Below are positions 21,575 through 64,000 of a DNA stretch of 64,000 nucleotides, piece after piece; position 1 is the first letter of the stretch; the number at the start of each line of letters is the position of its first letter. The notes beneath the pieces are model-generated. The model was not told the origin of the DNA. It saw nothing but the letters and a program-made list of their open reading frames with translations, and made no database searches. The position numbers and the translations under genes are program-made. Source of the DNA: Dipteris shenzhenensis (taxonomy: Eukaryota); assembly GCA_047967505.1 (NCBI GenBank), contig CM106538.1. One strand, written 5' to 3'.

Positions 21575-22263
21575 TCCAACCACATCATGGACTTATTTCA
21601 CTTCTGTCCACCATTATATTTTGCTCTGTGTGTGTGTGTGTGTGTGTGTAGCCCCATCTATCATCCAATCGCCTCACCTCTCGAGCTTAGTTCTCATGGC
21701 TATAAAGCACATGACGTGAAACACACTTAATCCTTTACTCTCCTTGAGAACCAAGGCTAACTTCTAAAAGAGGTTAGATTAGATCACTTAGGGAAGAGGA
21801 TGTTGGCTTATCTCTAGACATACTGCCAGCTCGATGCTCCTAAGAAAAATACAAATACCTTTAATGATTACTAGTCCAAACACATCATGGCCTTGTCTTA
21901 TTTCACTTCTGGCCTACCATTATATTTTTTCGTCCCCTCTCTCTCTCTCTCTCTCTCAGTGTAGTGCCACCTATCATCCAATCGCCTCACGTCTCAAGCT
22001 TAGTTCTCATGGCTATCGTCCACATGACATGAAACATATTTGATGCTTTACTCTCATTGAGAAGCAAGGCTAGCTTCTCAAAACGAAGGTTAGATTAGAT
22101 CACTTAGGGTAGAGGGTGCAAGCTTATCTCTAGACATATTGCCAGGTCATCAAGATGATCCTACGAAAGATACAATCACATTTAATGATTACTGGTCCCA
22201 ACCACATCCATGGCCTTGTCTTATTTCACTTCTGCCCTACCATTATATTCTTTCATCCTCTCT

Positions 22264-25262: not shown

Positions 25263-25486
25263 ATCTTATTTTTCATTCCCTAAATCAAATTTGGGAGGCC
25301 TCTGACACCCTAGCAACCATGTCCATCATTTTCAAGCCAAAAACCATCTAGAAACCTTAAATCTGACATCATGCGACTAGAGCCCTATTTAGGGTTTCGA
25401 GGGGGTTTTTGGCTTAAAAATGATGCACATGGTTGCTAGGGTGTCAGAGGCCTGCCAAATTTGATTTAGGGAATGAAAAATAAGAT
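25263..25486. repeat. Long inverted repeat (hairpin A)
   Basis: ATCTTATTTTTCATTCCCTAAATCAAATTTGG... pairs with ...CCAAATTTGATTTAGGGAATGAAAAATAAGAT; arms ~90 bp. Confidence 0.9.
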
Positions 25487-25660
25487 TGAGGGTTTAGGGT
25501 ACAAAACCCAAGGAAGTGTTATGATTTTGAACCTAGGACATCCTGCCACTGTCACACTTGCCTTGCCACTTTTCCCTACCACTTGCCCCTTACACATGCC
25601 CCTGCCACTTGCCCCTCCCATTCCATTTGTGTAAACAGGGTTATGGTTTTTTCACATATT

Positions 25661-25907
25661 AAAATCATATCTTTAAGAAATATTATTTGGGAGGCCATTG
25701 GGACCCTAGCAACCATGCCCATAAATTTTATGCCAAAAAACCCCCTGCTAGTCCGAAATCCGACATCATGCGACCTGCAGAAACTGGGCTCTGGTCGCAT
25801 GATGTCAGATTTTGGACTGGCAGGGGTTTTTTGGGCATAAAATTTATGGGCATGGTTGCTAGGGTCTGAGTGGCCTCCCAAATAAGATTTCTTAAAGATA
25901 TGATTTT
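25661..25907. repeat. Long inverted repeat (hairpin B), related to hairpin A
   Basis: AAAATCATATCTTTAAGAAAT...GACATCATGCGACC pairs with GGTCGCATGATGTC...ATTTCTTAAAGATATGATTTT; arms ~115 bp. Confidence 0.9.
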
Positions 25908-26719
25908 TACTTGGAAAAAAACCCTTATTCTTATTAATTCTTGAAAAATGATATTTTATTAATTTATATAATCTTTGGATTTTGATGTAATATGTTGGTT
26001 GCAGGATATTTTATGAGTTGATGAGTATGTCGGACGCAAGGGTTCCACCAGAGGGCCTTCTGCTGGGGGGATGGCATCGATTGGCCACTACATCAATAGA
26101 GTGGCTCAACACATTTTGGTGTTCCATCAACAACTATTGCCAGATGGAAATATAAACGTCATGAAGTTCAGGGTCCTCAGTCGGATGGTGAAGATGAGGC
26201 CCATCCATCCTACTACCGATCATGTTGTTCTAATTAGGCATAGTGTAGCTTTATTTTTATTCTCAGACACATGATCTGGTCCGCTTCATAGTATTATAGC
26301 TATTGTAGGGCTAGCTAGCATTACAGATCCCTTGGTTATAGAGAATGAAATTGTGCAGCCCTCTCTGCTTCAGCAAGCAAAAAAGGGATCTGAGCGAAGT
26401 AGGAAGAAGTGTAGACTAGAGTAGCTTAGGCATTCAAGCTTTGATGATCTTTGTGATACTACTCAATGTAAATAAAGAGTGCCATTTTTAAACAATTTTC
26501 TCTTCCCGTTTACAGAACATTGTTTCCTTTTCTATGTTAAGTAAAATTGAGTATTATTTCCTTTTGCATGTTCTATTAAGATTTGATGTTTATTATTTCA
26601 TTTTGCTTTTGTATACATTGAGAGTGCATGTAAGTAAATTAATAGATTGCAAATACATTGAAAATAAATTTAAGATTGCACATGCAAAGACAATTCTAAA
26701 AAAGACATTTTATTATATT

Positions 26720-26796
26720 GATGCCCGTAGGCAGAGTACAAGGTAGATGCCCGTAGGCAAAGTACAAGATAGATGCTCGTAGATAGAGTACAAGGT
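26720..26796. repeat. Three copies of a 26-bp repeat just 3' of the H3-like gene
   Basis: GATGCCCGTAGGCAGAGTACAAGGTA x3, slightly divergent. Confidence 0.85.
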
Positions 26797-26812: not shown

Positions 26813-27349
26813 CTAAGTGCCCTTGGACTTCCTAAGACGTACAATAAATTGCATGACTGCAGCGGTCACCGTGACCCTTTTCCTATGGATGGCAGCCAAC
26901 TGGGTGTCATCCATGAGGTCTACTAGGTAGGCCTCAGATGCATGCTGCAGTGCAAGCAAGGCGTCTCTAGAAATATGCTAGGGAGCCTCCACAACTCCAC
27001 GCCTGTAAAACCGGGACATTGGGCTAAGGTTGAGGTCTTGCATGACCTCGCGTACCACCCTTGCGAAGCTGGCCATCGGGATCAGTAGATCAATGGACTT
27101 TTGAAACTTTCTGATCTCCCATAGTGCCATGGTCCCTAGCTTGAATCTATACCGCCTCACTGGAGGAGGGCCTCCTTGCCCTCGATGTGGAGGGCCTCTT
27201 CCTAGATGTTGAGGGCCTCTTTGACCTGCACTTGGAGCTCGAGCACCTCTCCCCTGTTGGCATGGACCCTGATTGTCTGTTCTTCTCTTGGTCCTCTGCT
27301 CTGTCCTTCGTTGTTCTTCTTCCACATGCTCCTCCTCTATGCTCTCCAA
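26813..27349 (-). pseudogene. Divergent histone H3 (CENH3-like) gene with one in-frame stop
   Basis: 'RRYRFKLGTMALWEIRKFQKSIDLLIPMASFARVVREVMQD...' then, in the same frame after TAG at 26978-26980, '[54 protein letters not shown]' (stop 26813-26815). Complete H3 histone fold with a non-canonical N-tail. True start codon uncertain. Confidence 0.9.
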
Positions 27350-28137
27350 GTCATCCGTCTCTATCAGAGGATCTTAATGTGCCTTCCTATGCCATCATAT
27401 GCAGACATTTGAATACTTGTAGCTTGCATAGATGATACCAAATGTTGATTCCAAGCCTCCAACATGAGATTTTGACAGCATGAGAGTCCATCCCATGAGA
27501 GGGAGAATAGAGAAAGAAGCTTCCCACTCAAGAGCCAGCAGGAAATTTGAAAAAAGGGCTAGAGCAAAGAAAAATTCAAAATGGTGCTCAAAAATGAGGG
27601 GGAAGTAAGAGGAATGAGGGAGAATGAAAGAGTGTGGTAGTTGGATGGGAGGATTTGGTTTCAGGCCAAATGGTTCAAGTTTGGTTGAGAAACTAGGTTT
27701 CGCAGTTTGGTTATAGTTTAAAAACGTGATGGGAGAGTTGAGGCAACAAGTGGGTGCTCCACCTCATTGTTTAGGCCATTGAATAACGAAATAGAGAAGT
27801 CAAGCCACTTCCAATATTCTATTGCCCTCCACCATCCAATATTCTATGGGGTTTTATTCACCTTATTCTTCCATGTCACCAGCCCAAGGGCTCCCTTATA
27901 GGGCCCTTTTTGAGTCCAAATTTTTTGTAATGGAAGGACATAATTACGAAAAGCATGCCAAAATTCACAAATTCATTTTCAAAGAAAGTAAGAGCTTGTT
28001 ACTAAGATAACATCAATACAAATTTTTATATTCAAAGAAACATTAATCAAAAGAATGTTGAGAGAAAAGACATTGCATTAAAAATGAATAAAAGAGTCCA
28101 TCCATGTGTCTTTAGATATCGTTCAAAATAACATGTA

Positions 28138-30915
28138 TCACTCTGATACATGTACATCGCCAAGACATAACATTTTCTTTTCATCTCTATTTACCATAAC
28201 TTTTTCCTCTAAAACTAACCAATCTACGATAGCTTTCCTTATTGCAGGCAAGCTATGTTCATTTCTATATGCAGAAAAAGTTGGATCTCTCTTTATAATA
28301 TTATAATTAGACTTAAGTGACATGTACATCTCATCCATTGTGTTCAAGCCTAAAAATTTCACGAGAATTGTCTCTTGATCTTCTTCACCAAATTCATGAA
28401 CCTAAAAAGCATCAACCCATGGTATATAAATTAATAATCATCTATACTAATTGATAAAAGAAAGAATACATTAGCTTGAAGTATAACATGTAGCATATGA
28501 ATCAATAATCTTTCTATGCTAATCTATAAAAGGATAAATGCATCATTCTTTACACATATCAACTTACTTGATATATTTTAAATTGTAATCTATAAATTAA
28601 CATTTCTCCCTCCCATATGCATTGCATGTGTAGCCCACCCCCTATGTTTAGTCCATGTGCATCCCAATCATAGCCCATATGCAGCCCACCTCCTATATTT
28701 TGCCCATATGCATCCCATGTTCAGTCAACATGTAATATTCAGCCCACTCCCTATGTTTAGCCCATGTGCATCCCATACATAGCCCATATGCAGCCCACCT
28801 CCTATATTCTGCCCATATGCATCCCATATGCAGCCCATATGCATCCCATATTCAGCCCATATGCAGCCCGTATCTAATATGCATCCCATATGCAGCCCTA
28901 CAAACCATCCCCCTATATTCAACCCATATGCATCCCATATTCAGCCTGTATCTAATATTCATCCCATATGTAGCCCATATACATCCCTTTTGCAAACCAT
29001 CCCCCTATATTCATCCCATATGCATCCCATATGCAGCCGACACCTTGCCTAATCCTTATATTCAGCCCACTCCATATATTCAGTCCGTACACATCCCATA
29101 TCAGCCCACCTCCTATATTCAGCGCATATGCATCCCATATTCAGCCCATATGCAGCCCATATCTAATATGCATCCTATATGTATCCCATATGCATCCCCC
29201 ATCCCCTATATTCAGTCTATATGCATCCCATATGCAGCCCACACCTTGCCCAACCCCTATTTTCAGCCCATACACATGCCCATATGCAGCCCACCCCTTA
29301 GATTCAACCTCTATTCATCCCATATATAGCTCATATGCAATCCACCACCTATATTCAGCCCATATGAAGCCCATCTCCTATATTCAATCCATATGCATTC
29401 CATATCTAAATTCTATATCAATAATCTATCTATACTAATCTATAAAAGAAAAAATGCATCATTTTTTAATGTCAATATGAACTTACTTGAGTAGGCATAC
29501 CATGATAATCGATGGAATGAATATCCTTCTCAATGTTGATAGCATTCAACTCCTATGTGAAAGAAAAATCAAGTAGCAAAGAGTAACTGATGCTCTTTCT
29601 TTTCTTGTATTTTCGATTTGCTTGCATTGCTCCAAGAAAGTATGTATAAATATCTTCCTTCTTCCAAAAATAACTAGCACCATGAAACTCAAGCGGCAAG
29701 ATCTCATGATAGTTTTCTTTAATAATGCTCTTGATATTTTTTTTGCATCTTTGAACATTGTGGCATAAATCTGCAATAACCTCATGACTTTTCACCCAAA
29801 TTTTTACTATGCAATGGTTGGCACAGTAGGTGATATTTTGATAATCTTTACAGTATCGGAGTAGAAAATCCCTCCCATATAGTTTCCCACACTCACAATC
29901 TTGCATCTTTGGTGGTTAGAAAATTTGATTGTATGTAGGAGCTTCTAGTAAAGATGAATCTCCATTGTTTGTTGCAGACATTGTGCACCTTGGAGGAACT
30001 TTGTGCATCTCAGTATTCACTACTTGTGAAGAACTACATTTGTTTTGTTTCATGTCATTTATTTCCTATTGTAGTCGATTGATGGTCGCTAATAAGACTT
30101 CCAAATTTGGTGTCATGGAAGAGGCCATCACTAGATTCTAGCTCTAAACAATTCATGAAAAAATAAAAGATAAACATATATTGCCAAAAACAATGTTAGA
30201 AACTTATAGAAATTTCAAAACATATATTGCATTCGGAACTTCGACTTCCTACTCTTCTTCCACCCATGTCACAAAACAAAAAGCTCAATATCTTATCTTG
30301 AGAGTCAATTGGAATTTGATGCTCATCCCACAAAGTTTGATCTCGATTATCCTCTCTAATATTTGGTTGCATATTGATGGTCCTTCCCATTCATCAACAT
30401 CATTAGGTTTTATGGAAGATCAAATGGTTGTTGATATTCGGTTCCATGGGGGGATCACATGGTTGTTGATTCAAATCATTGGAACCATCATTAGGTGCCT
30501 CATTAAAGTTATATGGCTCATTCTCATTTGTATTGTTATGTACTTGTCCAAGGAAACCTATTTGGGTACCCAAGCCTTCATATCTATGCTTTAATTGTTG
30601 GTGTAAAACAAAAGTTGAAGGAGCTACATGTTGTCCATGGTCCATGATAGTATGAGAGACAATCACACCAGATTCTTCTTCTTTCTTCCATGTTAGACAA
30701 AGTATTCATCTCACTTCCTTCTTGCACATGAGATGTTGTTTGCTCCTGACTCAAACGATGACTTTGACTTTGCTCAATTAAGGCACATTTTCATTCAAAT
30801 CATGCGGACAATGCTCATAATAAGTGCTTCTACTAACAAATTGCCATCCTTGAGTTGTATGGGCACGCCTATAGTTGCATGAGCACCTTCTTAAATTTCT
30901 TGAAGAACTTGCCAT
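28138..30915 (-). pseudogene. Decayed multi-exon gene with Cys/His motifs, probably a DNA-transposon protein
   Basis: ATG at 30915 after acceptor TTGTTAG. N-terminus 'RRCSCNYRRAH...GWQFVSRSTYYEH'. Exon ~30145-29501 with 'CECG...YC...YCANHC', followed by donor GTATGC. Last exon starts at TTTTTAG|28401, 'VHEFGEEDQE...DVHVSE*'. Confidence 0.5.
28615..29410. repeat. Intronic minisatellite (GCATCCCATAT / GCAGCCCATAT / TCAGCCCA motifs)
   Basis: Dozens of degenerate ~11-nt motifs, flanked by a ~70-bp direct repeat (28502-28570 and 29418-29490). Confidence 0.9.
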
Positions 30916-32245: not shown

Positions 32246-35200
32246 TTAGAATCTTAAATGGTCAACCTTGCCCATTTTGGAATGGATTTATCACATGTAC
32301 CACTTGGAGCTGCATCCTTTGTTTGACTAAGTGGTATTGTATCCAAACCTTGGGTTGTTCCTCCCCACTAGTAGCTGGCTACACATCTAAAACATTTGAG
32401 GGAGAATCACCCTCAACATGTGGCAAACTAGCTATAGTATGAGAGGAAGAAGGAGTATCCTCTTGAGAACCCATCTCATCATACTCAAACTAAATGATAT
32501 CCAAAGGCATAACATCATAAGATGGAAAATCCACATTGGTTGTCTATATGCATTCATTTTCAATAAAGGAAACATCTCTATCGATTATGATTCCTTGTTT
32601 CTGAATTGTTTCTGAATAATAGAGCCCGATGTCCTTACTTTCTATACTATATCCAACAAAAATTCATTTTATGTTTTTGTCATCAAGATTTGATCTATGC
32701 TAAGATGGAATCAAAGCATAAGCAATTGAGCCAAACACTCTGAAATGATGAACCTTTGGTTTACAGCCATAAAGCCTCACAAAAGGTGTTACATTGGCCA
32801 ATGCTTTGGTAAGGCATCTATTATGTATGTATGTGGCTATAGTTATGGCCTCTCCCCAAAATTCCTTTGGCATTTTCTTGAATTTCAGTATGCCTCTTAT
32901 CATTTACAAAAGTGTCCTATTCTTTCTTTCTACAATAGGGTTGTGATGTGGTCTATATGGCACTCTCTTTTGATGCTCGATCTCTTTTTCCTTCAAATAC
33001 CCTTCAAAGTCATTTGATGTGTACTCTCCCCCGAATTGGTTTGGTTCTCAGCCAAGGACTTGAACTCTTTGAACCAATAAAGCACTTCAGATTTATCCTT
33101 AATGAGGAAGAGCCATGTGAATCTAGAATAATCATCAATGAAGGTAACAAAATACTTTGCGGTTGTCACATTCATGGGATCACATACATCACTGTGTACT
33201 ATCTGCAAAACTCTAGTTTCTTTCATTGAGCGTAAGCCATCGTTCTTGAAAGGAAGGTGGTGCAATGTGCCAAGAGCACACCCTTCACAAACTTCATTGA
33301 CTAGCTACTGTAATTTTGGCATTCCATGAACCATTTCATTTTCGTAAGTAGGCCAATTCTTTATGATGTACATGACCAAACCTGGCATGCCATAAATCAC
33401 TTGGAGAAGCAAATGAGACAAGCAAAGCATGCTGAACATAGGGCTGAGAATAAATCTTGTATAGACCTTGCTCATAAGTACCTGTTGCCATAATTTCATA
33501 CCCTTTCTTGGGATTCTTGTTCTTGCATTGATCATCTTGAAACTCAATAAGCATGTGCTGATCATGGGCAATAGGAGGAACTAGAATTAAATTCTTTCTC
33601 AAGTCTGGGCCATACCAAACATCATGGAGGTATCTTTTCTTTCCTAAATCCAAAAAGATGAGAACATCTCCCACTCTTGTGATGTCCTGTGATTCATCAT
33701 TTGCACATGTAACCTGTTTGATAAACATGTGAGATTTCCTCAAACCACTCCTTTCTAGTAGTCATGTGCTTAGTAGCACCACTATCCAAATACCATTTAT
33801 CAATGGTAGTAAAAGAATAATCAATAGACTGAGAGCATGTGCACTAGAACCCCCCTTTGCATCAAAGTTTTTCGGAACTACAACAAACACAAAATCCTGT
33901 CCTCTTGTGCAAAGTGTGCCTATGCTAGAGCATTTGCATTTTCAGTATGGTGCAATAAAATTACTGCTTGTGCCTTGCCTTTTCTTCTCCTTAGCAACCC
34001 TTTTCTAACACTCTACAATAAAATAACCTGGCTATTTACAATAATTGCATTTTCCCTTCTTCACCTTAGGACCTTAATTTGCATTTGTACTTGCATTCCC
34101 CTCCTTCTTGAGCTGATATGTATGGCTGTTTCTTTTCTAAAATGACCTCTGCTGCAATTTGCCCTTTTCTTGGGTGGCAAGTGCTTGCTCACCCTTATGG
34201 GAGAAATGGGAAAAATTGGAGGTCGTCTCCTCTCCCTATAACAACAACCCAAGAAGCCCATCAAATGAGAGAGGGGATGCCCTGAGCATAATAGTCAAAG
34301 AGATAACAAATGTGCCATAAGAGGGAGCCAAGTTGTTGAGAGTGATAGAGATTGGTTTCTTGTCCTCTATTTCCTCATCAACACTAGCTATTTGATCTGT
34401 GAGATCAGTGATCTTTGCAATGTGCTCTATGATTGTTTGACCTTATTGCATGGAAAGCTCCTTGAGCTTATTGGTCAATGCAATGACCCTTGCCTCATTC
34501 AGGCATCATTCTTGACATGATACATGTTTGCCAACTTTTCCCATGCATAATTTGCATCTGTGCATGACTTAATGGTTGTCATAATGTGCCTCTTCACAAA
34601 TGAGGCAATCAAGAATAAAACCTGGACATTTCTATGGTCAAACTTATGCTGCTCCTCCAATAGTGTCGGAGATGGAGTGGCAGTAGAAGTAGTAGAAGTG
34701 TTGGTGGCAGGAGGAGGAGGCAGTCGATAGAGCGAGTGAGGAAAAGCGAGCGGGCCCAAAAAAGCGAGCGAGCTTTTCCACAATTTCCTTATCGAGGTAC
34801 TCAACATAGCTTTGTGGAAACCACTATTTGGGAAGATTCTCAAAAATAAAACTTATGTTACTATGTGTAACTATACCAATATTGCGAATTATAGTCTACC
34901 TTAACTTCCAATTGGAGCCATACTCACATTATGCAACAATAGTATGTGGGTTTGAAAGAAACTGAATTTCCACTCCAAAGCGGATTCCATTACTGATACA
35001 ACAATTCTTTTGCATTTGAAATGGATCTTATTATCAAACTCCTTCAATAATCAAAACAAATGCGTTGCTTGATATGTTGAACTTAGTAACGTAAACATCA
35101 CTTCACCCATATGTAGGGAAAAAAAACTGTTTGTAGACTTCATAGCATGGGATTGCATCAACACTTATGACATTCAAAATGGTTCTTCTTATTAAAAGTG

Positions 35201-47243: not shown

Positions 47244-48330
47244 GCATGGATGCATGTGCTCGAGCACACACATACACACACATGTTCACTTATGCTTTGA
47301 TTTGTATTAACTTGGATTTACACTGAAGAGAAGAATTGTCCTTGCATGTTTGCCTCTTGGGTTCTATATATACTAATTCTAGGATCGAAGGTTGGCGATT
47401 TAGTTTTCTAGGTTTTTGATTCACTCGTTTCAAGTTTCAAGTTTCAAATTTACTTGTTCTAGATCCACTTATCCTATATTCACTTTGGTTTAGGTTCCAA
47501 GTTCACTTGTTTGCATTTTGAATTTAGGAATTGTTAGATATCAATGCTCCACTCTCGTGTAACTACGCAGGAACCAGCTAACTTTACTTGTAAGTGCCCC
47601 ATATGAGGAGAAGGCATTTGAGTAGCTTGGTTATCCGGTAGGTCCTGGTTTGGACACCAGATGGGGGCCATGTGTGGCCTGATGGCTGGATGGCTTCAGA
47701 TAGAGTTGGCACACTGCCAACTAGGCTACATGCAAGTGTGGGAAGGCATCCCTTGACTGACCGCACTGAGGGTAGATGGAGCATTTCTCGGGGCAGCCCA
47801 CTCTCGGGTTGCGGGGCCCGTTTGGAGCCTCAGATGATCCCGGATGGCTTTCGGCCGACTGGAGATCGTAGGTTAGTTGCTCTGTTTTGCGCACCAATTC
47901 TATCGTATGGTCGGTGGCCTATTTCGGGACCGACCTCCAGTCGATCGTTTTGGGCGGACTGGGTCGGTCACCCAATTGAGCCCAACCAACTATGACTAGT
48001 GGCTATATAAGAGCAAGTCCGTGAAGCCCATTTCATCACTGGCTACAGCAACCCTGATTCCTTAGCATCCAGCCTCTGTCCTCTACTGTTTCTGGCATGC
48101 CATCGAAGCTTCTCTCACAGGAGCGCATGGTTGGGAGGCAGCGCCATCTATTGTATCTTTTCTACAGTAATCAAATTTTTGATTCTCCATACTATCTGGT
48201 CTTCTCTCTTGCATACGAGATCCTGTTATCTGTTGAGCACAGACGTATTATTTTCTTACATGGTATCAGAGCCCGGACTCTAGCAAGAAGATTTGGTAGT
48301 GTGTTTCTGTTTGCGAGCAGATTGTGAGAG

Positions 48331-51300
48331 ATGGCCCAGCCTGCAAGACTACGAATCCCACCGTTCGGTGAAAGCGAAAAGTTGGATGGCTGTAACTATC
48401 CACTCTAGAGGTTCAAGATGAAGACCATCCTAAGTGCATATGAGCTTTGGGACACTGCTACTGGGGTGGACGTGAGGCCGATCGTGAGACCGGATCCAGC
48501 CAATACAGGACAACAGATAGTACCAATTGCGGATGAGATTCTCACGTGGAGAAGAAGAAATGCAGATGCGCTATGTTCTATTGTCTGCAGTGTAAGTGAT
48601 CCGTCATGGCATTAATTCAACATGTCACCACAACGGAGGAGGCATGGAAGATCTTGAAAAATCAATACGAGACCACGAATCAGACGTGGATTCAGAATCT
48701 GGAGACTCAACTCACAAACGAGAAATTGTCTGAGTCTGAAGTGGCAGAGAAGTTCATCACCAGGGTGAAGAATCTGTGCGATTAGATGAGTGCAATTGGC
48801 ATCACCATCACCAGCGAGAATCTAGCATGAAGGTGCATATGGATTCTCCCACTAAAGTACGACGGTCTTGTTACAACGCTGAATACACAGAATAGAAATT
48901 CGCCCCTGAACTTTGAGGATTTTAGCGCGATGCTTCTGGAGGAGGAGATGCGTCAAAAGATGAGGACTCCGGCTTTCTATGCTGGATCAAAGAAAGGTAA
49001 GGGTAAGGACTCTGGTAACCTATCTTCTTCTGATGATAAAAGAGAAAGAAGAAGATCAAGTGCTTCTATTGCAACAAGGCAGGGCACAAGCAGAATGAGT
49101 GCCGGAAGAAGATTGCAGATGAGAAGAACGGAGTAAAGAAAGAGTCCAACAACAGCGCGCAGGCAGTACCAGTAGAGTTGTTCATCGCAATTGAGGAGAT
49201 TTACATGGAGGCAGTTCATGTACCTATGGATGAACCATGGATCATTGACAGTGGTGCATCGCGCCACGTGACCAGTCGGAAGGATTGGTATACCTCTCTA
49301 CAGCCGGTAGAGAATGACATCCTGGTAGCAGTCGGCAATGATGCAAAATGTCTAGCAAAAGGAAAAGGTATGATTGCTCTCAAGTCAGATGGAGTTGTAA
49401 AACAGTTGTCCGATGTTCTTTATGTGCCAGATATCAAGAGGAACTTGTTGTCCGTTTTTGCGATCACAGATCGGGACCTCAAAGTTCAATTTGATAAGAA
49501 TGGTGCACAGATCCTGGATCTTCAAGGGAAGGTTGTTGGTAAAGGTACATGGCGCAACAACATCTACAAACTCTCAGCTTTCAGTGCTCGAGCCGATGTG
49601 AAGAACACTAAGCTGGGGCATGAGAGGTTTGGTTATATAAACCTTAGTTCTTTGAAGGAGATGCATAAAAGTGGAATGATTGTAGACCTACCAAAAATTT
49701 CAGATCTGCCCGATGTATGTAAAGCTTGCATGATGGGCAAGCAGCATCGGCATCCCTTTCCTAAAGAGGCCAGCAGGGCAAAGGCTCCTCTAGAGCTCAT
49801 TCACACGGACCTCTACAGAAAGATGGAGACGGAAGCTTTGGGTGGTTCCTACTACTTCATGACGCTGATGGACGACTACAGTAGAAGGATATGGATATAC
49901 TTCATGAATACTAAAGACGAGGCTTTTAGTAGGTTCAAGGAATGGCATGTAATGGTCGAGAAAGAAACGGGGAGGAAGGTGAAGAAGTTGAGATCAGAAA
50001 GAGGTGGAGAGTTCACATCAACTGAATTCAAAAGAGACTGCAAAAGTCACGGAATCAAGAGGCACTAACCCTCGCCACATACATCACAGCAAAATGGAGT
50101 AGCAGAATGCAAGATGCACGTCATCTACGAAATGGGTTGGAGTATGATGAAAGGGAAAGATTTGCCAAAGTCTTTCTGGGTTGAAGCATGTAATGTTAGA
50201 ATCCAAGAGCATGTGCCTAGCCCCCCGCCAAGACCGCTACCACCTCACGAAAGTGCACAACCTTCATGGCCACTACGGAGGCTCTGGCATGTGTGTATGG
50301 CAGGTCCCCACCCCTGCCATAAGGCACCCTTGCCTAGCCAGCCCTCCAACCTCCACAAAAGGCAAGCTTGGGGGAATTGAAGATAGGAGGGGCAACTTGG
50401 ACTATTTATGTCCCTTCATCTTCCACACACCTTTGTATGTGGGATAATTCAACCCTTTCTCCTTTCTTCTTATCCCCTTTGTCCATGAGAGATTTGCACC
50501 TCCAACACCCCCCTCCAATCGATCATGGAAAGAGGTGGCCGGGGATCAGACCTGGGCTCTGATACCATGTTAGAATCCAAGAGCATGTGCCTAGCGTGCC
50601 CCCCGCCAAGACCGCTAGCACCTCATGGAAGTGCACAACCTTCATGGCCACTACGGAGGCTCTGGCATGTGTGTATGGCAGGTCCCCACCCCTGCCATAA
50701 GGCACCCTTGCCTAGCCAGCCCTCCAACCTCCACAAAAGGCAAGCTTGGGGGAATTGAAGATAGGAGGGGCAACTTGGACTATTTATGTCCCTTCATCTT
50801 CCACACACCTTTGTATGTGGGATAATTCAACCCTTTCTCCTTTCTTCTTATCCCCTTTGTCCATGAGAGATTTGCACCTCCAACATGTAACACTGCAGTT
50901 TACATCCTGAATCGTGAATCGTAGCTACACGAAGGCTGTGAACGGGATGACTCCACTGCAAGCCTTTTCTGGTAAGAAACCTTCAGCTCCACATTTCAAA
51001 GTTTTTGGATGTGACTGTTTTGTGCATGTCCCTGATGCTACCAGGACCAAATGGGGACCGAAGAGCCAGAAGTGTATTTTCTTGGGCTATAGTGAAGAGG
51101 CGAATGGTTACCGTCTCTATAACCCTGTTACCAAAAAGGTAATTGTAAGTCGCGATGTGGTCTTCTCAAAACAGCCGCATCAATTGGAAGAGGATGCTTC
51201 CTTCCCAGACAACCAGGACTAGGATATCCATCCAGTACGACCACCAATAGCAAACCGAACTCCCTTAATAGTGCTTGGGAGGATTCAAGATAAAGAAGAT

Positions 51301-53007
51301 GAAGAAGAGCCCACAGAACCACAACGGCAAAGGCCATTCCCGAAGTGGGTAAAGCAGCTTTTGGACGGCAGAGAACCTCCAGCCATTGAGGAGGAACCAT
51401 CCGAACACCGCCAGTCCAAGAGATTAGAGGAGCAAAGAAGAGCGCAGGAACACTTGGTCAACTATGCTTTGATGACAGAAGTGATCCATGCTGATGAACC
51501 CATTTCTTGAAGAGGCACAGGGTGATGATAGATGGATGGAGGCTATGTAGTCAGAGTATGGCTCCATAATGAAGAACAACACTTGGGACCTTGTGGATCG
51601 TCCACCAAAATGCAAGGTAATTGGCACCAAGTGGGTGTACAAGACCAAGTACAAGTACGACGGCACGTTGGATAAGTACAAGGCTCCGACTCGTGGCAAA
51701 AGGATTCGCACAGGTACATGGTTTTGATTATCAAGATACTTTTGCTCCCACAGCTCGACTAACCACAATTCGTAGTGTTTTGGCTTTAGCTGCCCAGGCA
51801 AGTTGGCACGTGTTTCAAATGGATGTGAAATCTGCCTTTCTGAATGGAGATCTCAAGGAGGAGATATACGTGGAACAACCACCAGGTTTTGAGATCCCCG
51901 ATTCAGAAGGTAAAGTCTGCAAACTGAAGAAGGCACTTTACGGGCTGAAACAGGCCCCACGAGCGTGGTACCAGCAAATCGATGCCTACTTTCTGCAAAA
52001 TGGGTTCAGGAGGAGCCCATCTGATGTAAATTTGTATATCTTTAGAGGAGGAGGCAAGTGTATGATCATGGTCCTTTATGTGGACGACCTTGTCCTAACA
52101 AGGAACCATGAAGAGAAGATCTCGCAGACAAAGAATTTGCTAGGAAGAGAGTTTGAAATGACAGATGCATTTGTGTTTTGGGATTGAAGTTTGGCAAGAG
52201 CCGAAACAGATCTTCATTTCACAACTGAAGTATGCTGGAGAGATACTGAAGGCATTTGGCATGGCTGAGTGCAAGACAGTTGGTACCCCTATGGAGGTTG
52301 ACGTGAAGCTCTCAAACGAGGATTCATCACCACTGGTGGATGAAGCAAAGTACAGAAGGCTTGTGGGCAGCTTGATTTACCTGTGCAACACATGGCTGGA
52401 CATCAGTTTTGCGACTGGTGTACTAAGCAGGTTTTCCAATAAGCCCCGAGAGAACCGTTGGAGGGTAGGGATGCAGGTGCTGAAATACATCAAAGGCACA
52501 CTTGATTATGGCATCACCTATACCAAGGGCAACATCTTGACCGGATTCTGTGACTCGGATTGGGCAGGAGACGTGGACATCAGAAGATTAGTGACAGGTT
52601 ATTGTTTCTCACTTGGATCTGGAGTTGTATCATGGGTCAGCAAGAAGCAACCCACAGTTGCTCTTTCTTCTACCGAGGCCAAGTACAAATCTACATGCTT
52701 TGCTTCTTATGAGGCAGTGTGGTTGAGGAGGATTCTGGGGGACATGGGTGCAGTGCAGAACAAGCCTATGCATTTATCATGTGACAATCAGAGTTGCATG
52801 GCGATTGCAAAGAACTCGGTGTTCCATGCTTGCACAAAACACATTGAGATTCAATATCGCTTTGTACGCGAGCTCATCATGGATGGAGAGGTCGACTTGG
52901 TGTACTGTTTGACTACAGAGAATGCTGTAGACATCTTCACGAAGGCTCTTGGAAGAGACTTGTTGGAGAGGCATCTTCATCGACTTGGCATTGGGCCAAA
53001 AAAGTAA
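48331..53007 (+). pseudogene. Copia gag-pol polyprotein with stops, frameshifts and a TRIM insertion
   Basis: 'EKLDGCNYPL', knuckle 'CFYCNKAGHKQNEC', PR 'WIIDSGASRH', INT 'LIHTDL...MDDYSR', RT 'QMDVKSAFLNG' and 'LYVDD', RNase H 'FCDSDWAGD' and 'CDNQS'. Confidence 0.95.
50194..50885 (-). mobile_element. TRIM (miniature LTR retrotransposon) nested in the integrase
   Basis: Near-identical LTRs 50194-50507 and 50568-50885. 60-bp interior with PBS (50556-50567, minus) and PPT (from 50508). TSD TGTAA on both sides. Confidence 0.95.
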
Positions 53008-56000
53008 GTTCACTTGCGGGTGGACATTGAGGGCGGGTGTTAGATATCAATGCTCCACTCTCGTGTAACTACGCGGGAAGTAGCTAACTCTACTTGTAAG
53101 CCCCACATATGAGGAGAAGGCATTTGAGTAGCTCGGTTATCCGGTAGGTCCCGGTTTGGACACCAGATGGGGGCCATGTGTGGCCTGATGGCTGGACGGC
53201 TTCAGATAGAGTTGGCACACCACCAACTAGGCTACATGCAAGTGCGGGAAGGCATCCCTTGACTGACCACACTGAGGGTAGATGGAGCATTTCCCAGGGC
53301 AGCCCACTCTTGGGTTGTGGGGCCCGTTTGGAGCCTCAAATGATCCCGGATGGCTCTAGGCCGAACAATAACCGTAGGTTAGTTGCTCTATTTTGCGCAC
53401 CGGTTCTATCGTATGGTCGGTGGCCTATTTCGGGAACCCCCAGTCGACCGTTTTGGGTGGATTGGGTCGGTCACCCAATTGAACCCAACCGACTACAACT
53501 GGTGGCTATATAAGAGCAAGCCTGTGAAGCCCATTTCATCACTGGCTACAACAATCCTGATTCCTTAGCATCCAGCCTCCATCCTCTACTGTTTGTGGCA
53601 CGCCATCGAAGCTTCTCTCACAGGAGCACACGGTTGGGAGGCAGCGCCATTTATTGTATCAGTACTATAGTAATCAAATTTTTGATTCTCCATACTATCT
53701 GGTTTTTTCTCTTGCATACGAGATCCTGTTATCTGTTGAGCACAGACGTTATATTATTTTCTTACAGGAATATGGGTTCCCTTATTCTGTATGTCAGGTT
53801 CTAGGTGATTCAATTGGTCTGAGTTTTGAGTTCACATGTGTTAGGTTCCAATTGTTGAGTTTCGAGTTCACATGTTTTACATTCCAATTTTGGAGTTCAT
53901 TTGCACTTGGTTTTGGGTTCAACTGATCTAGTTTTTGGGTTCATTTGTTCCATGCATTATTTCACTTATTCTACATGCACTTGTTCCAAAGACATATTAT
54001 GTGTTTTGGGTCCACTTTTTCTAGGTTCCAGCTTCACTTGTTTCAAAATCCAAGGTCAGGATTTCAATTGTCTGAGGTTCCAAATTTAGTTGTATTTGGG
54101 TTTTGATCGTAGTTATTCCAGATTTCGGGTTTAGTTGTTCTGCATTCCAAGTTTTGGTTCACTTGTTTTGAGCTCCAAGTTCACCGGTTTTAAAATCTAG
54201 TTTTGGATGTTGATTCCAAAATCATGGTTTTGGAATCCTAGTTTTGCATTCACTTTTTTTGGGATATAACTTGACTTGTTTTAGATTAACTTGTTCTAAA
54301 TTCAATTGTTTCAGATTAAGTCATTCTGAATTCACTTGTGTTAGGTGCTGAGTTCCAAGTGTATGGATTCTAGGTTTACTTTTCTAATATAATTAGGATT
54401 TATAGAATGAGAATTGAGAAGTTATGTTGTCACAAATGACAACCTCTTTGAGAACCTAGGCTTCATAACAGGACATGTTAGGAAGACACACACCAAAAAA
54501 AGAGAAAACCCAATACATCATTTTTAGGAGGACTATCCAAGGCAGAGGACCTTTAGACTCAATGAAAGCCAAAATTCAATACATCAATTTTTGGGGGACT
54601 ACCCAGGGCAGAGAACCCAAGTACATCAAGCCATAGAATAGATTTAAAAAAATCCTCTTTGTATAAGAGATGTCCTCAGCAAAGTTGTTGCACATGTGTG
54701 TGCACATTCTTCCTAATATATGAGTGAATTCCGGGAAGAATGCCCCCTAAGATATATCATCACATGACTCTCAACGTGTCGGACTAAGAGTCACCCAAAG
54801 TTGATGTAGTGGCCTCAAGTACCACTAGCAATTGGGAGTCAATCAATGTGTAGTACCTCAGGTGCCAATCAGAGAAGCAAGGTCGGAGAAATCACTTTTT
54901 GATGGAGAGTGGTCTACACCAAGCTCAAGGTAATGCACCAGTGTCAAAGTAGAAGAGAGTGATCACGGGTAAGGGCAGCTTCACATGAATATTGGACATC
55001 AGCTCAATAATTAGGAGCTAACTAACAAAGTGTAATGTCAGGCTGCTCAATCATGACCAGGTTGTTGAAGAGGAGTGAAGGATAAAATTCGGGCTACTAT
55101 AACATATGGTAGGAGCTTTTACTAGCAGAACTGAGGCAAAAATGTGGGCAGCTCAAACAGTGAACCACTTTTTCTTTCACCTCTACCCAGATGGTCCAGT
55201 ATGTGCCATGTGATAGTCCAGTTAACCATTGATATCCTCGATTGCAAATGGGTCTCCCATTAACCATGGGTTTCAATCTAGGTTTACAGTGTCTTGTGCT
55301 CAAATCTTGATTAGTGCCTTGATGAAGAAAGCATGAAAACTCTTAAAGAAGATAGTTATGTCTATTAGGCACTATCTTACTCCAAATACCAAGGCGTATG
55401 GCTCCACAATCATCTTTCCCACTTTTCTAATGCAAAGTCTCTTGCAACAAACTCGCATAAGCATCCTTTCCATATTCTCCTCGGATAACATTACATGTCT
55501 CTTTGATTCTGGAATTGATGCCATGATTCTTTGCCTCTGAGATAGAGCTGGGAAGGGTGAGTTGTGGCTGCTGAATGAACTCATCCACTCCTAATAAGAT
55601 GTCACTTTTATAGTTGAGTACATTAAAATCATCCACGTTTGAAGGGACAAAGCTTGGAACATTGGCATATTCTTGAAGTCCTTTGATATTGTATTAAACC
55701 TTATATTTATCATTGAAAACCACATGCCTCTTTCTAATCTTCAAATATCATTGCTTAGCACTTGTTCTTTCCATTATGCTTTCCATATTTCCATTTTGTT
55801 CCTAGTTAGCTTGGCATTCTCCTACTGCCATGTCTCTTCATAGGGTATCAGAGCCACCTCCAAGAGGTTGAGGAAGCTACCTTCCCTCCTCCTCATTGGA
55901 AGGTCCTCTCTTCCACTTGGAGGGCTAGCCTCTCCTACTCTCCTTCCTTGAGCACTCCCTCTTCTTCCTTTGCCTCTCCACCTTGATCTCCTCTCCTCCT

Positions 56001-62423: not shown

Positions 62424-64000
62424 TGTTAGCCCTCTCTACTCTGAAGACTAACTCGAAACGCACTACTGCGACAGATTTACATGCGTAATCGGACTTCAGA
62501 ACTGCGTATGAAAATTCATAGAGTAGAACAGTGATCGACAGAGCAACACCCCTCCCACACGGCTGTTCTCCAGTGTTACGGAAATTACCGGGACCGCTTC
62601 GTCAAAAACAGGAGGCTGTACTTCCGCTTCAGGCTTTGCAGATCCGTCGGACGACACTTCCATTGTTACCGCTTCCATCTCCGACTCCATCGCCCTGACT
62701 GGTTCCGTCAATTGTTTGATGAGAGAACTCCGGAAATTGGGTACCAATGCTAACAATTGCTCCATTGTCATGTGTATTTGCTGTTTCCGCAAATCCTGCC
62801 ATAAATCATATGGTTCAACACCCTCCTCGCCAGTCATCAGGCTGTCCTTCTGACTGGTAGGTAGACAAGTCGCTTCTGGCTGCTCTCCTTGCAGGCGCCT
62901 TGCCACCTTCGCACCATTCTCTGTCACCGAGACTGCCTTTTCCGTGCTCGGCCTAGGTAACACCGTTGGGGTTTTCTGGACCCATTCACCGACCGTCGAC
63001 CGCACCTTTTGTTGTGCCTGCCAGTCCAACGCCGTAGGTCTCCCCTTCTCTTGCGGGGCCTTGTATTCCCGCACCTTTTCCTGGGATCGTGTGACCACGA
63101 GCACATCTCCGATCGCACTTCCTCCCACTTTGCCTTCAACAGGGACACCCGCCGGTACTTCCGGTACTTCTTCGGACTTTGGACTAGGCTCCTTGCTATC
63201 CTGTTGCTGACTGGCATCATCGCATTCGATAATCAGAACCGCATTTACTGCTGGTGCGGACTTGCCTTCTCCGGATCCCCGGGTTGCTTCCCTTTCCGCC
63301 TTGTGGCGCTTAAATAATTCGCAATCTACCTTTCGATGTCCGGGTTGATTGCAATAAAAACATAGGAACGTCCGTTCCCCTGCTGGTTCATCTGCACCTG
63401 TTCCAGCCGTTCTCGGCCGCCAAGGTCTTTTCGCCGGTGCGGCTGGTACCGCGGCTGGTGCTGCGGCTGGTGCTGCGGCTGGTGCCGCAACTACCGCCGC
63501 CACCGCTGGTGTCGGGGCTATTCGTGCGTTATAGCGGCAGATCTCCGTGGTATGCGTCGCTGTTTGGCAAATCGCACACCACCGCTCATTCAAACCGCAT
63601 TCCTCTGCTAAGTGTCCTGCATTCCGGCACCGATTACACCAAGTATCCTTGCGAACTTTTGAAGAGGACCCTATTCCACTATCCCGGCTTTTGGCTCCAG
63701 CAGCAGATCCTTCCGGAAATAACTTCCCTGCCGCTTTTCCAGCCTTCCGCCTCATGGAACGTTTGTCCTCCTCCTCATCCGACTGATCCGACTCCTCCTC
63801 ATTATCGGTATCGGAGTCTCCCTCAGCCTCCTCATACTTCACTTTTCCTTTCCTTCCCTTGGAAGTAAACAGAACTTGTTCCGCCCTCACCGCTGCTTGG
63901 ACGACTTCTTCCAATGAAAGAGCTTCCAGATCCAACGATGCCAGGGACCTTTTCAATCCTTTATTCAGCCCCTCCATGAAGTAAGCATTTTGAATGGGGA
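62424..64000 (-). mobile_element. Ty3/gypsy element with an internal deletion; continues off the right edge
   Basis: The gag ORF joins directly to a ~120-bp segment ending ...GGGCTAACA at 62424, an LTR-like end. Confidence 0.7.
62496..64000 (-). CDS. gag: Ty3/gypsy Gag with three CCHC knuckles; 5' end outside the window; truncated at the protease
   Basis: Open for more than 490 aa. 'YFMEGL', 'CNRCRNAGHLAEEC', 'CAICQTATHTTEIC', 'CFYCNQPGHRKVDC'. 'ISVTLENSRVGGVLL' breaks off where the protease catalytic Asp is expected. Confidence 0.85.
   Translation of the reverse strand, partial: PIQNAYFMEGLNKGLKRSLASLDLEALSLEEVVQAAVRAEQVLFTSKGRKGKVKYEEAEGDSDTDNEEESDQSDEEEDKRSMRRKAGKAAGKLFPEGSAAGAKSRDSGIGSSSKVRKDTWCNRCRNAGHLAEECGLNERWCAICQTATHTTEICRYNARIAPTPAVAAVVAAPAAAPAAAPAAVPAAPAKRPWRPRTAGTGADEPAGERTFLCFYCNQPGHRKVDCELFKRHKAEREATRGSGEGKSAPAVNAVLIIECDDASQQQDSKEPSPKSEEVPEVPAGVPVEGKVGGSAIGDVLVVTRSQEKVREYKAPQEKGRPTALDWQAQQKVRSTVGEWVQKTPTVLPRPSTEKAVSVTENGAKVARRLQGEQPEATCLPTSQKDSLMTGEEGVEPYDLWQDLRKQQIHMTMEQLLALVPNFRSSLIKQLTEPVRAMESEMEAVTMEVSSDGSAKPEAEVQPPVFDEAVPVISVTLENSRVGGVLLCRSLFYSMNFHTQF

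Follow-up and report, generated by a model that had tools for sequence, protein, structure and literature searches.

The window, the whole 64-kb stretch of plant DNA analysed here, carries on its minus strand a 186-codon frame for a variant of histone H3, which runs from 27373 to 26813. It contains one internal TAG, at 26978-26980, and is open on both sides of this stop: from 27373 as far as the stop itself, and from 26977 on until the terminal TAG (26813-26815). The features of the locus are as follows.

27323-27373, minus strand: in-frame acidic leader (DPLIETDDLESIEEEHV) without ATG, preceding the site at which the relatives start (their M1 column falls on window residue 18)
26813-27322, minus strand: pseudogene of a CenH3-type H3 variant, beginning at about 27322 with the vestigial N-terminus and closed by the terminal TAG, by translation and by collinear alignment with relatives of 155-217 residues
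27165-27221, minus strand: 21-bp unit, 2.5 copies, in the coding part of the N-tail, translated as RGPQHLG / RGPPHRG / QGGPPPV (repeat scan, translation)
26831-27214, minus strand: histone fold region, residues 54-181 (PF00125, solved H3 chains)
26963-27043, minus strand: extended loop 1, residues 111-137, 14 residues longer than in H3, with the RFYR motif of the long-loop relatives
26978-26980, minus strand: premature in-frame TAG in loop 1, ahead of alpha-2 and alpha-3 (translation)
26720-26796, strand not assigned: 26-bp tandem repeat, three copies, the nearest 17 nt beyond the terminal stop on the 3′ side (repeat scan)

The H3-variant frame

The original prediction of a complete H3 fold is confirmed by both profile and structure searches. 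The Pfam family Histone (PF00125) matches the minus-strand translation of 26813-27373 with an E-value of 2.7e-25 and 89.4 bits, against a curated cutoff of 26.4 bits; residues 54-181 align with positions 20-122 of the 122 of the profile. Among solved structures, H3 chains are the top matches (about 1e-19). The details that had been read from the letters hold as well: the LLIP motif is present as DLLIP (DLLIPMASF), Ala104 replaces the alpha-1 Gln (FARVVRE versus FQRLVRE), DDT and AIH..RVT are still in place, and loop 1 exceeds by 14 residues that of the solved H3 chains to which it was aligned. The frame is also intronless, as proposed, being collinear and without interruption relative to the complete relatives of 155-217 residues. 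The N-tail had been called unrelated, and here the description has to be changed: it aligns collinearly with the tails of the relatives, with RRTEQRTKR opposite their M.R.KQCAKR start. The acidic stretch sits upstream of the vestigial start, and a TAA at 27374-27376 (minus strand) closes it off.

The GC content of the frame is 0.53, versus 0.34 and 0.42 in its flanks, and the coding frame holds a single internal stop versus 10 and 9 in the other two. Because of this GC island and this excess of stops in the other frames, the coding remnant is real and not a product of chance. A tblastn search with the relatives spans 27280-26822, and the copy number within the 64-kb window is one.

The flanks are rich in repeats. 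On the 3′ side of the pseudogene, at 0.9-1.5 kb, lie two palindromes related to each other (25263-25486 and 25632-25936), with arms of 100 and 144 nt that are 93% and 86% complementary. At 21592, where the copia remnant of 18.1-21.7 kb stops, begins a satellite that extends to 24874; its unit measures about 313 bp, and it is broken by (TC)n and (TG)n runs. On the other side, a C-rich satellite at 28625-29403 has an 11-bp unit of the CCCATATGCAG type with higher periods of 22, 51 and 89-92 bp, and yields long spurious plus-strand ORFs. The flank ORFs of at least 85 aa were scanned against Pfam: nine of the ten, between 25.6 and 33.2 kb, are without a family, and the one at 32993-33304 is an integrase. 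Rfam at its gathering threshold and a tRNA scan return nothing over the whole window. Protein remnants of copia elements are placed as follows.

18.1-21.7 kb, plus strand: copia protein remnants (Pfam scans)
33.0-33.8 kb, minus strand: copia protein remnants (Pfam scans)
49.0-53.0 kb and 59.5-60.7 kb: copia protein remnants

One copia element is delimited at 47532-53766 by 729-bp LTRs of 91.5% identity, with gag, integrase and reverse transcriptase ORFs at 49040-53007. Directly 3′ of its 5′ LTR lies TGGTATCAGAGC, a primer-binding motif of the tRNA-iMet type (48261-48272), which has four exact occurrences in the window versus 0.5 expected; a reverse-strand copy is found inside the element, at 50556-50567. 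The papers listed that contain this string, 12 of 36, are all on plant retroelements or plant pararetroviruses, and we accordingly take the window to be of plant origin. The element also holds a 319-bp duplication of 97.8% identity (50193-50507 and 50567-50885). Between 38600 and 41700, dense direct and inverted repeats of 0.2-1.1 kb and 77-94% identity are interleaved with TG/TA microsatellites, in what looks like a foldback array. At the edge of the window, a gag-like frame of 500 codons (62496-63998, minus strand), open to the border, encodes a CCHC zinc knuckle as well as a stretch rich in Ala and Pro; no other intact frame in the window is as long.

Relatives with a long loop 1

The closest protein in a word-index search, among its three matches, is P0002, of 168 aa (E 9.9e-30, 58% identity); the next has an E-value of 2.5e-16. 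An exhaustive HMMER search gives 7639 proteins at E 0.001 or better. Its list is headed by fused multi-H3 predictions, and the next entries, P0025, P0027 and P0031, match in a single stretch through loop 1. In a second search, made with a 124-residue part of P0002, 19 of the 120 matches listed share 63-100% identity with this part. Twelve are full-length or nearly so (P0002, P0282-P0285, P0164, P0209, P0031, P0286-P0288 and P0027) and seven are fragments (P0289-P0294 and P0299). All 19 long-loop members among the matches listed come from ENA or Logan contigs only, and are followed, at 46-59%, by canonical H3s and CenH3s from fungi, algae and other sources. P0025, P0244 and P0162 also belong to the long-loop group.

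We distinguish four groups: A (P0002/P0005/P0282-P0285/P0164), B (P0031/P0209/P0286-P0288), C (P0025/P0244) and D (P0027/P0162). The relatives are small, stand-alone, uninterrupted ORFs of 155-217 residues, on contigs of up to 6.9-7.1 kb. Between the RE of alpha-1 and alpha-2, their loop 1 counts 28-29 residues and that of the window copy 28, compared with 14 in H3. Common to the group are a short H3-like start (M.R.K...AKR), an S.RT.SD tail motif, KRRWRPGT, RWS before alpha-2, a Gly at the position of the alpha-2 Thr, and a conserved C-terminal tail, R.RNN.DAF..DP.MP.

Groups A and B differ at 43% of sites in the N-tail and 60% in loop 1, compared with 18% from alpha-N to alpha-1 and 23% from alpha-2 to alpha-3. 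These fast tails and loop 1, set beside slow helices, indicate that the fold of the long-loop family is probably under purifying selection. Some relatives look damaged: P0288 has RPRT for RPGT, P0284 has AMH for AIH and P0294 has a divergent C-terminus, while P0299 looks chimeric, with a group-B-like front and a group-A C-terminus. P0294 and P0027 diverge directly past DAF and QDF, which hints that the family may have at most one intron, on the 3′ side. Upstream of some relatives is an ABC-transporter-like ORF (P0006, P0010, P0011), immediately so in the case of P0006 and P0007.

Close copies were sought in other collections. In the JGI metagenomes, 431 of 597 pattern matches encode H3 relatives, and the best 80, at 35-50% identity, include none that is close. 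The same holds for IMG/VR (17 of 117, 36-54% identity to P0002) and for GTDB contigs (3 of 204, 37-48% identity), where no close copy occurs. A protein atlas search with P0031 returns generic H3 clusters only. The family is probably found in plants, since the window is plant DNA. An AlphaFold2 model of P0002, built from a 16-row alignment, has a mean pLDDT of 46.1, too poor to use.

According to Malik and Henikoff (2003), as quoted in PMC4359364, CenH3 is diagnosed by its extended loop 1 and by lacking Gln 69, Phe 85 and Thr 118 of H3. The extended loop 1 is evident in the window copy from its 28 residues versus 14 in H3. The alpha-1 Gln is absent, with Ala in its place and A or S in the relatives, as is the Phe before alpha-2 (LRFQ in H3), replaced by Ile134 in the window copy and by Trp in the relatives. 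Position 118, which we take to be the Thr of the alpha-2 EDT, is different: the window copy keeps DDT (Thr157), whereas 14 of the 15 aligned relatives have Gly or Asp and P0047 has Val. On this mapping, the long-loop group shows all four features and the window copy three, keeping the Thr. Cnp1 also keeps the alpha-2 Thr, so its absence is not a universal criterion. Against solved structures, the best match of P0002 is S. pombe Cnp1, with 101 bits and a small lead over H3 chains at 93-95 bits. Long loop 1, missing alpha-1 Gln and missing Phe before alpha-2 together support, at the level of sequence, the predicted CENH3-like character of the window copy as a CenH3-type H3 variant.

Loop 1 belongs to the CenH3 targeting region in other organisms. 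By analogy with CenH3, intact members of the family would replace H3 in nucleosomes, and their long loop 1 together with alpha-2 would form a targeting surface.

Decay and placement of the window copy

The original prediction that this copy is dead stands, and on more evidence than its TAG: a stop in loop 1, no ATG before the fold, the loss of the C-terminal tail and 11 of 35 invariant positions broken. The first in-frame Met is residue 82, already inside alpha-N. The ORF ends in RLRKSKGT*, where full-length relatives continue with R.RNN.DAF..DP.MP, so that the conserved R.RNN.DAF tail of the long-loop group is lacking. In the alignment, the 11 broken columns, of the 35 invariant in 15 relatives, are M1, K5, the K, R, W, R and P of the KRRWRPGT block (RRYRFKLGT in the window copy), the R and W of RWS, and two D. 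In a leave-one-out control, the relatives break 0-3 invariant columns each, and the outlier P0047 breaks seven.

The stop itself had been read as a plausible CAG>TAG change, a reading without support, since the residue aligned with it in the relatives is T, G or H. The idea that the TAG is spliced out with a mini-intron in loop 1 was rejected, as the uninterrupted ORFs of the relatives have the same loop length. Decay is modest: the 186 codons contain a single internal stop and are free of frameshifts. Given this single stop and intact frame, the copy may have been under coding constraint until recently, and much of its divergence may have accrued while it was still coding. With the start codon lost and a stop in loop 1, alpha-2 and alpha-3 would not be made; with the C-terminal tail lost and family-invariant residues replaced, the window copy would be unable to act as a histone.

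Its placement depends on the columns used. In a tree with the loop 1 columns, the window copy joins the long-loop group with an SH-aLRT of 90 (a quick tree, not starred), on a terminal branch of 1.62 changes per column (median 0.3). In a careful tree without these columns, 16 relatives stand together (98/92) with the window copy outside, pairing weakly with P0132 (80/74) on a terminal branch of 1.27 changes per column (median 0.43). Without loop 1, monophyly is still not rejected by an AU test (p-AU 0.547), the tree constrained to it having a log-likelihood 2.81 units above that of the free tree. The putative membership of the window copy is carried largely by the length and motif of loop 1, in addition to the best pairwise scores and helix motifs. 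One such helix motif, of 17 residues, is shared by the window copy with P0027 and P0162. The other columns speak neither for its membership nor against it.

The window copy thus resembles the long-loop group in its loop 1 length, RFYR, a collinear N-tail and a shared stretch of 26 residues, closest to group D. It differs from it by the missing start Met, the missing RW before alpha-2, KRRWRPGT and RNN.DAF tail, and by its stop.

Origin of the copy and comparison with known systems

We regard the locus as probably a non-functional relic, the solitary pseudogene of a plant CenH3-type H3 variant. A member of the family would have been duplicated into repeat-rich intergenic DNA, either by retroposition or by copying at the DNA level. 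That the gene is instead alive, with a TAG due to a sequencing error, to polymorphism or read through, and with a start supplied by an upstream exon, is hardly credible: the single stop without frameshift in 186 codons and the 51 nt of open frame upstream of the vestigial start would suit it, but the in-frame ATG is absent, the C-terminal tail is gone, the replaced family-invariant residues (11 of 35) include the Pro of PGT and the RW before alpha-2, and the terminal branch is very long in both trees. A more specific version of the pseudogene reading, on which LINE or LTR machinery reverse-transcribed the mRNA of a host CENH3 rich in introns and inserted the product at this locus, is possible but on balance rather unlikely. 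The copy is indeed intronless and collinear with full-length relatives from N-terminus to stop, it has neither start codon nor recognisable promoter context, and an AATAAA at 26709-26714 (minus strand), about 100 nt past the stop, fits a copied 3′ UTR. However, no A-run follows the AATAAA, nor any in the 900 nt 3′ of the stop, and the direct repeats flanking the pseudogene are chance-size matches only, with no target-site duplication among them. Moreover, the relatives are themselves uninterrupted ORFs and, as the divergence of P0294 and P0027 hints, might have one 3′ intron at most; since the family may be natively intron-poor, the lack of introns is not diagnostic of retroposition.

The original prediction went further and saw a histone encoded or captured by a transposon, which finds no support within the window. 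Its premise of transposon-like surroundings goes too far: satellites and hairpins are adjacent, but the nearest transposon protein domains lie about 5 kb off on each side and none occurs from 21.7 to 33.0 kb. We consider it improbable that the variant is transposon cargo and the window copy one decayed member of a dispersed family. What speaks for this is the repeat-rich locus, the 10-35% differences between subgroups of relatives, of which some are damaged (P0288, P0284, P0294) and one is chimeric-looking (P0299), and the confinement of the relatives to short ENA or Logan contigs, which fits repeat-masked, multi-copy DNA. There is also a precedent in Dothideomycete fungi (PMC6710886), where histone H3 was captured by hAT transposons through transduplication and multiplied to hundreds of copies, which RIP has inactivated. 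On the other hand, around the pseudogene there is no LTR pair, no TIR of at least 18 nt, no target-site duplication and no poly(A); it is a single copy in 64 kb; and the ABC-transporter-like ORFs found upstream of some relatives have no counterpart in the window (P0006, P0010 and P0011, tblastn E 0.29 or worse). The variation among relatives is equally compatible with orthologues from different species or with assembly chimeras, and the JGI, IMG/VR and GTDB collections hold no close copy. Assignment of the pseudogene to the minus-strand copia remnant at 33.0-33.8 kb was rejected, with no LTR pair or primer-binding motif linking the two. Also unlikely is the proposal that the window copy is a dead member of an unannotated, intron-poor, CenH3-type family with a conserved C-terminal tail and a loop 1 longer by 13-14 residues than that of H3, spread by transposons or retroposition as several co-resident groups of paralogues, many of their copies damaged.

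On the preferred reading, a solitary pseudogene, the copy itself is routine, one more dead gene in a repeat-rich plant genome. The modest interest lies in its parent family, a well-supported set of H3 variants (98/92) with an unusually long loop 1 and the diagnostic features of CenH3. Should a plant lineage use this family as its centromeric histone, it would have in the long loop 1 a targeting domain out of the ordinary. Should the family prove to be multi-copy and mobile, plants would have a counterpart to the H3 amplified by fungal transposons, in this case with a histone of the centromere type; and if the dispersed-family reading were true, the family would possibly be a selfish one of centromeric histones, not a single host CENH3.

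We found no report in the literature of a transposon-encoded CENH3-like histone. Even if capture were true here, its kind is already known, as hAT capture of H3 is documented in fungi (PMC6710886). As described there, the fungal case likewise consists of H3 coding sequence present as dead copies in repeat-rich DNA; it differs in that a canonical H3 sits inside a defined hAT element, whereas here a CenH3-type variant of a plant is present as one copy in the window, without an element. A second comparison is offered by the Pinus CENH3 antigen peptide (bioRxiv 10.1101/2024.08.07.607108), of which 20 residues were compared: its ARSK..P..KK start resembles MARSKLPIKKA of group C, and these residues are unlike groups A, B and D and the window copy. 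Two of its segments, TVPARKK and SGSGNAAS, match none of the 391 retrieved proteins. With CenH3/CENP-A in general, the window copy shares its H3 fold and lengthened loop 1, and it likewise lacks the alpha-1 Gln and the Phe before alpha-2. The loop 1 of the long-loop group is 13-14 residues longer than that of H3, and the Cnp1 loop is 9 residues shorter than that of P0002. The long-loop relatives are further set apart from CenH3/CENP-A by their short H3-like start and conserved C-terminal tail, and the window copy by its retained alpha-2 Thr.
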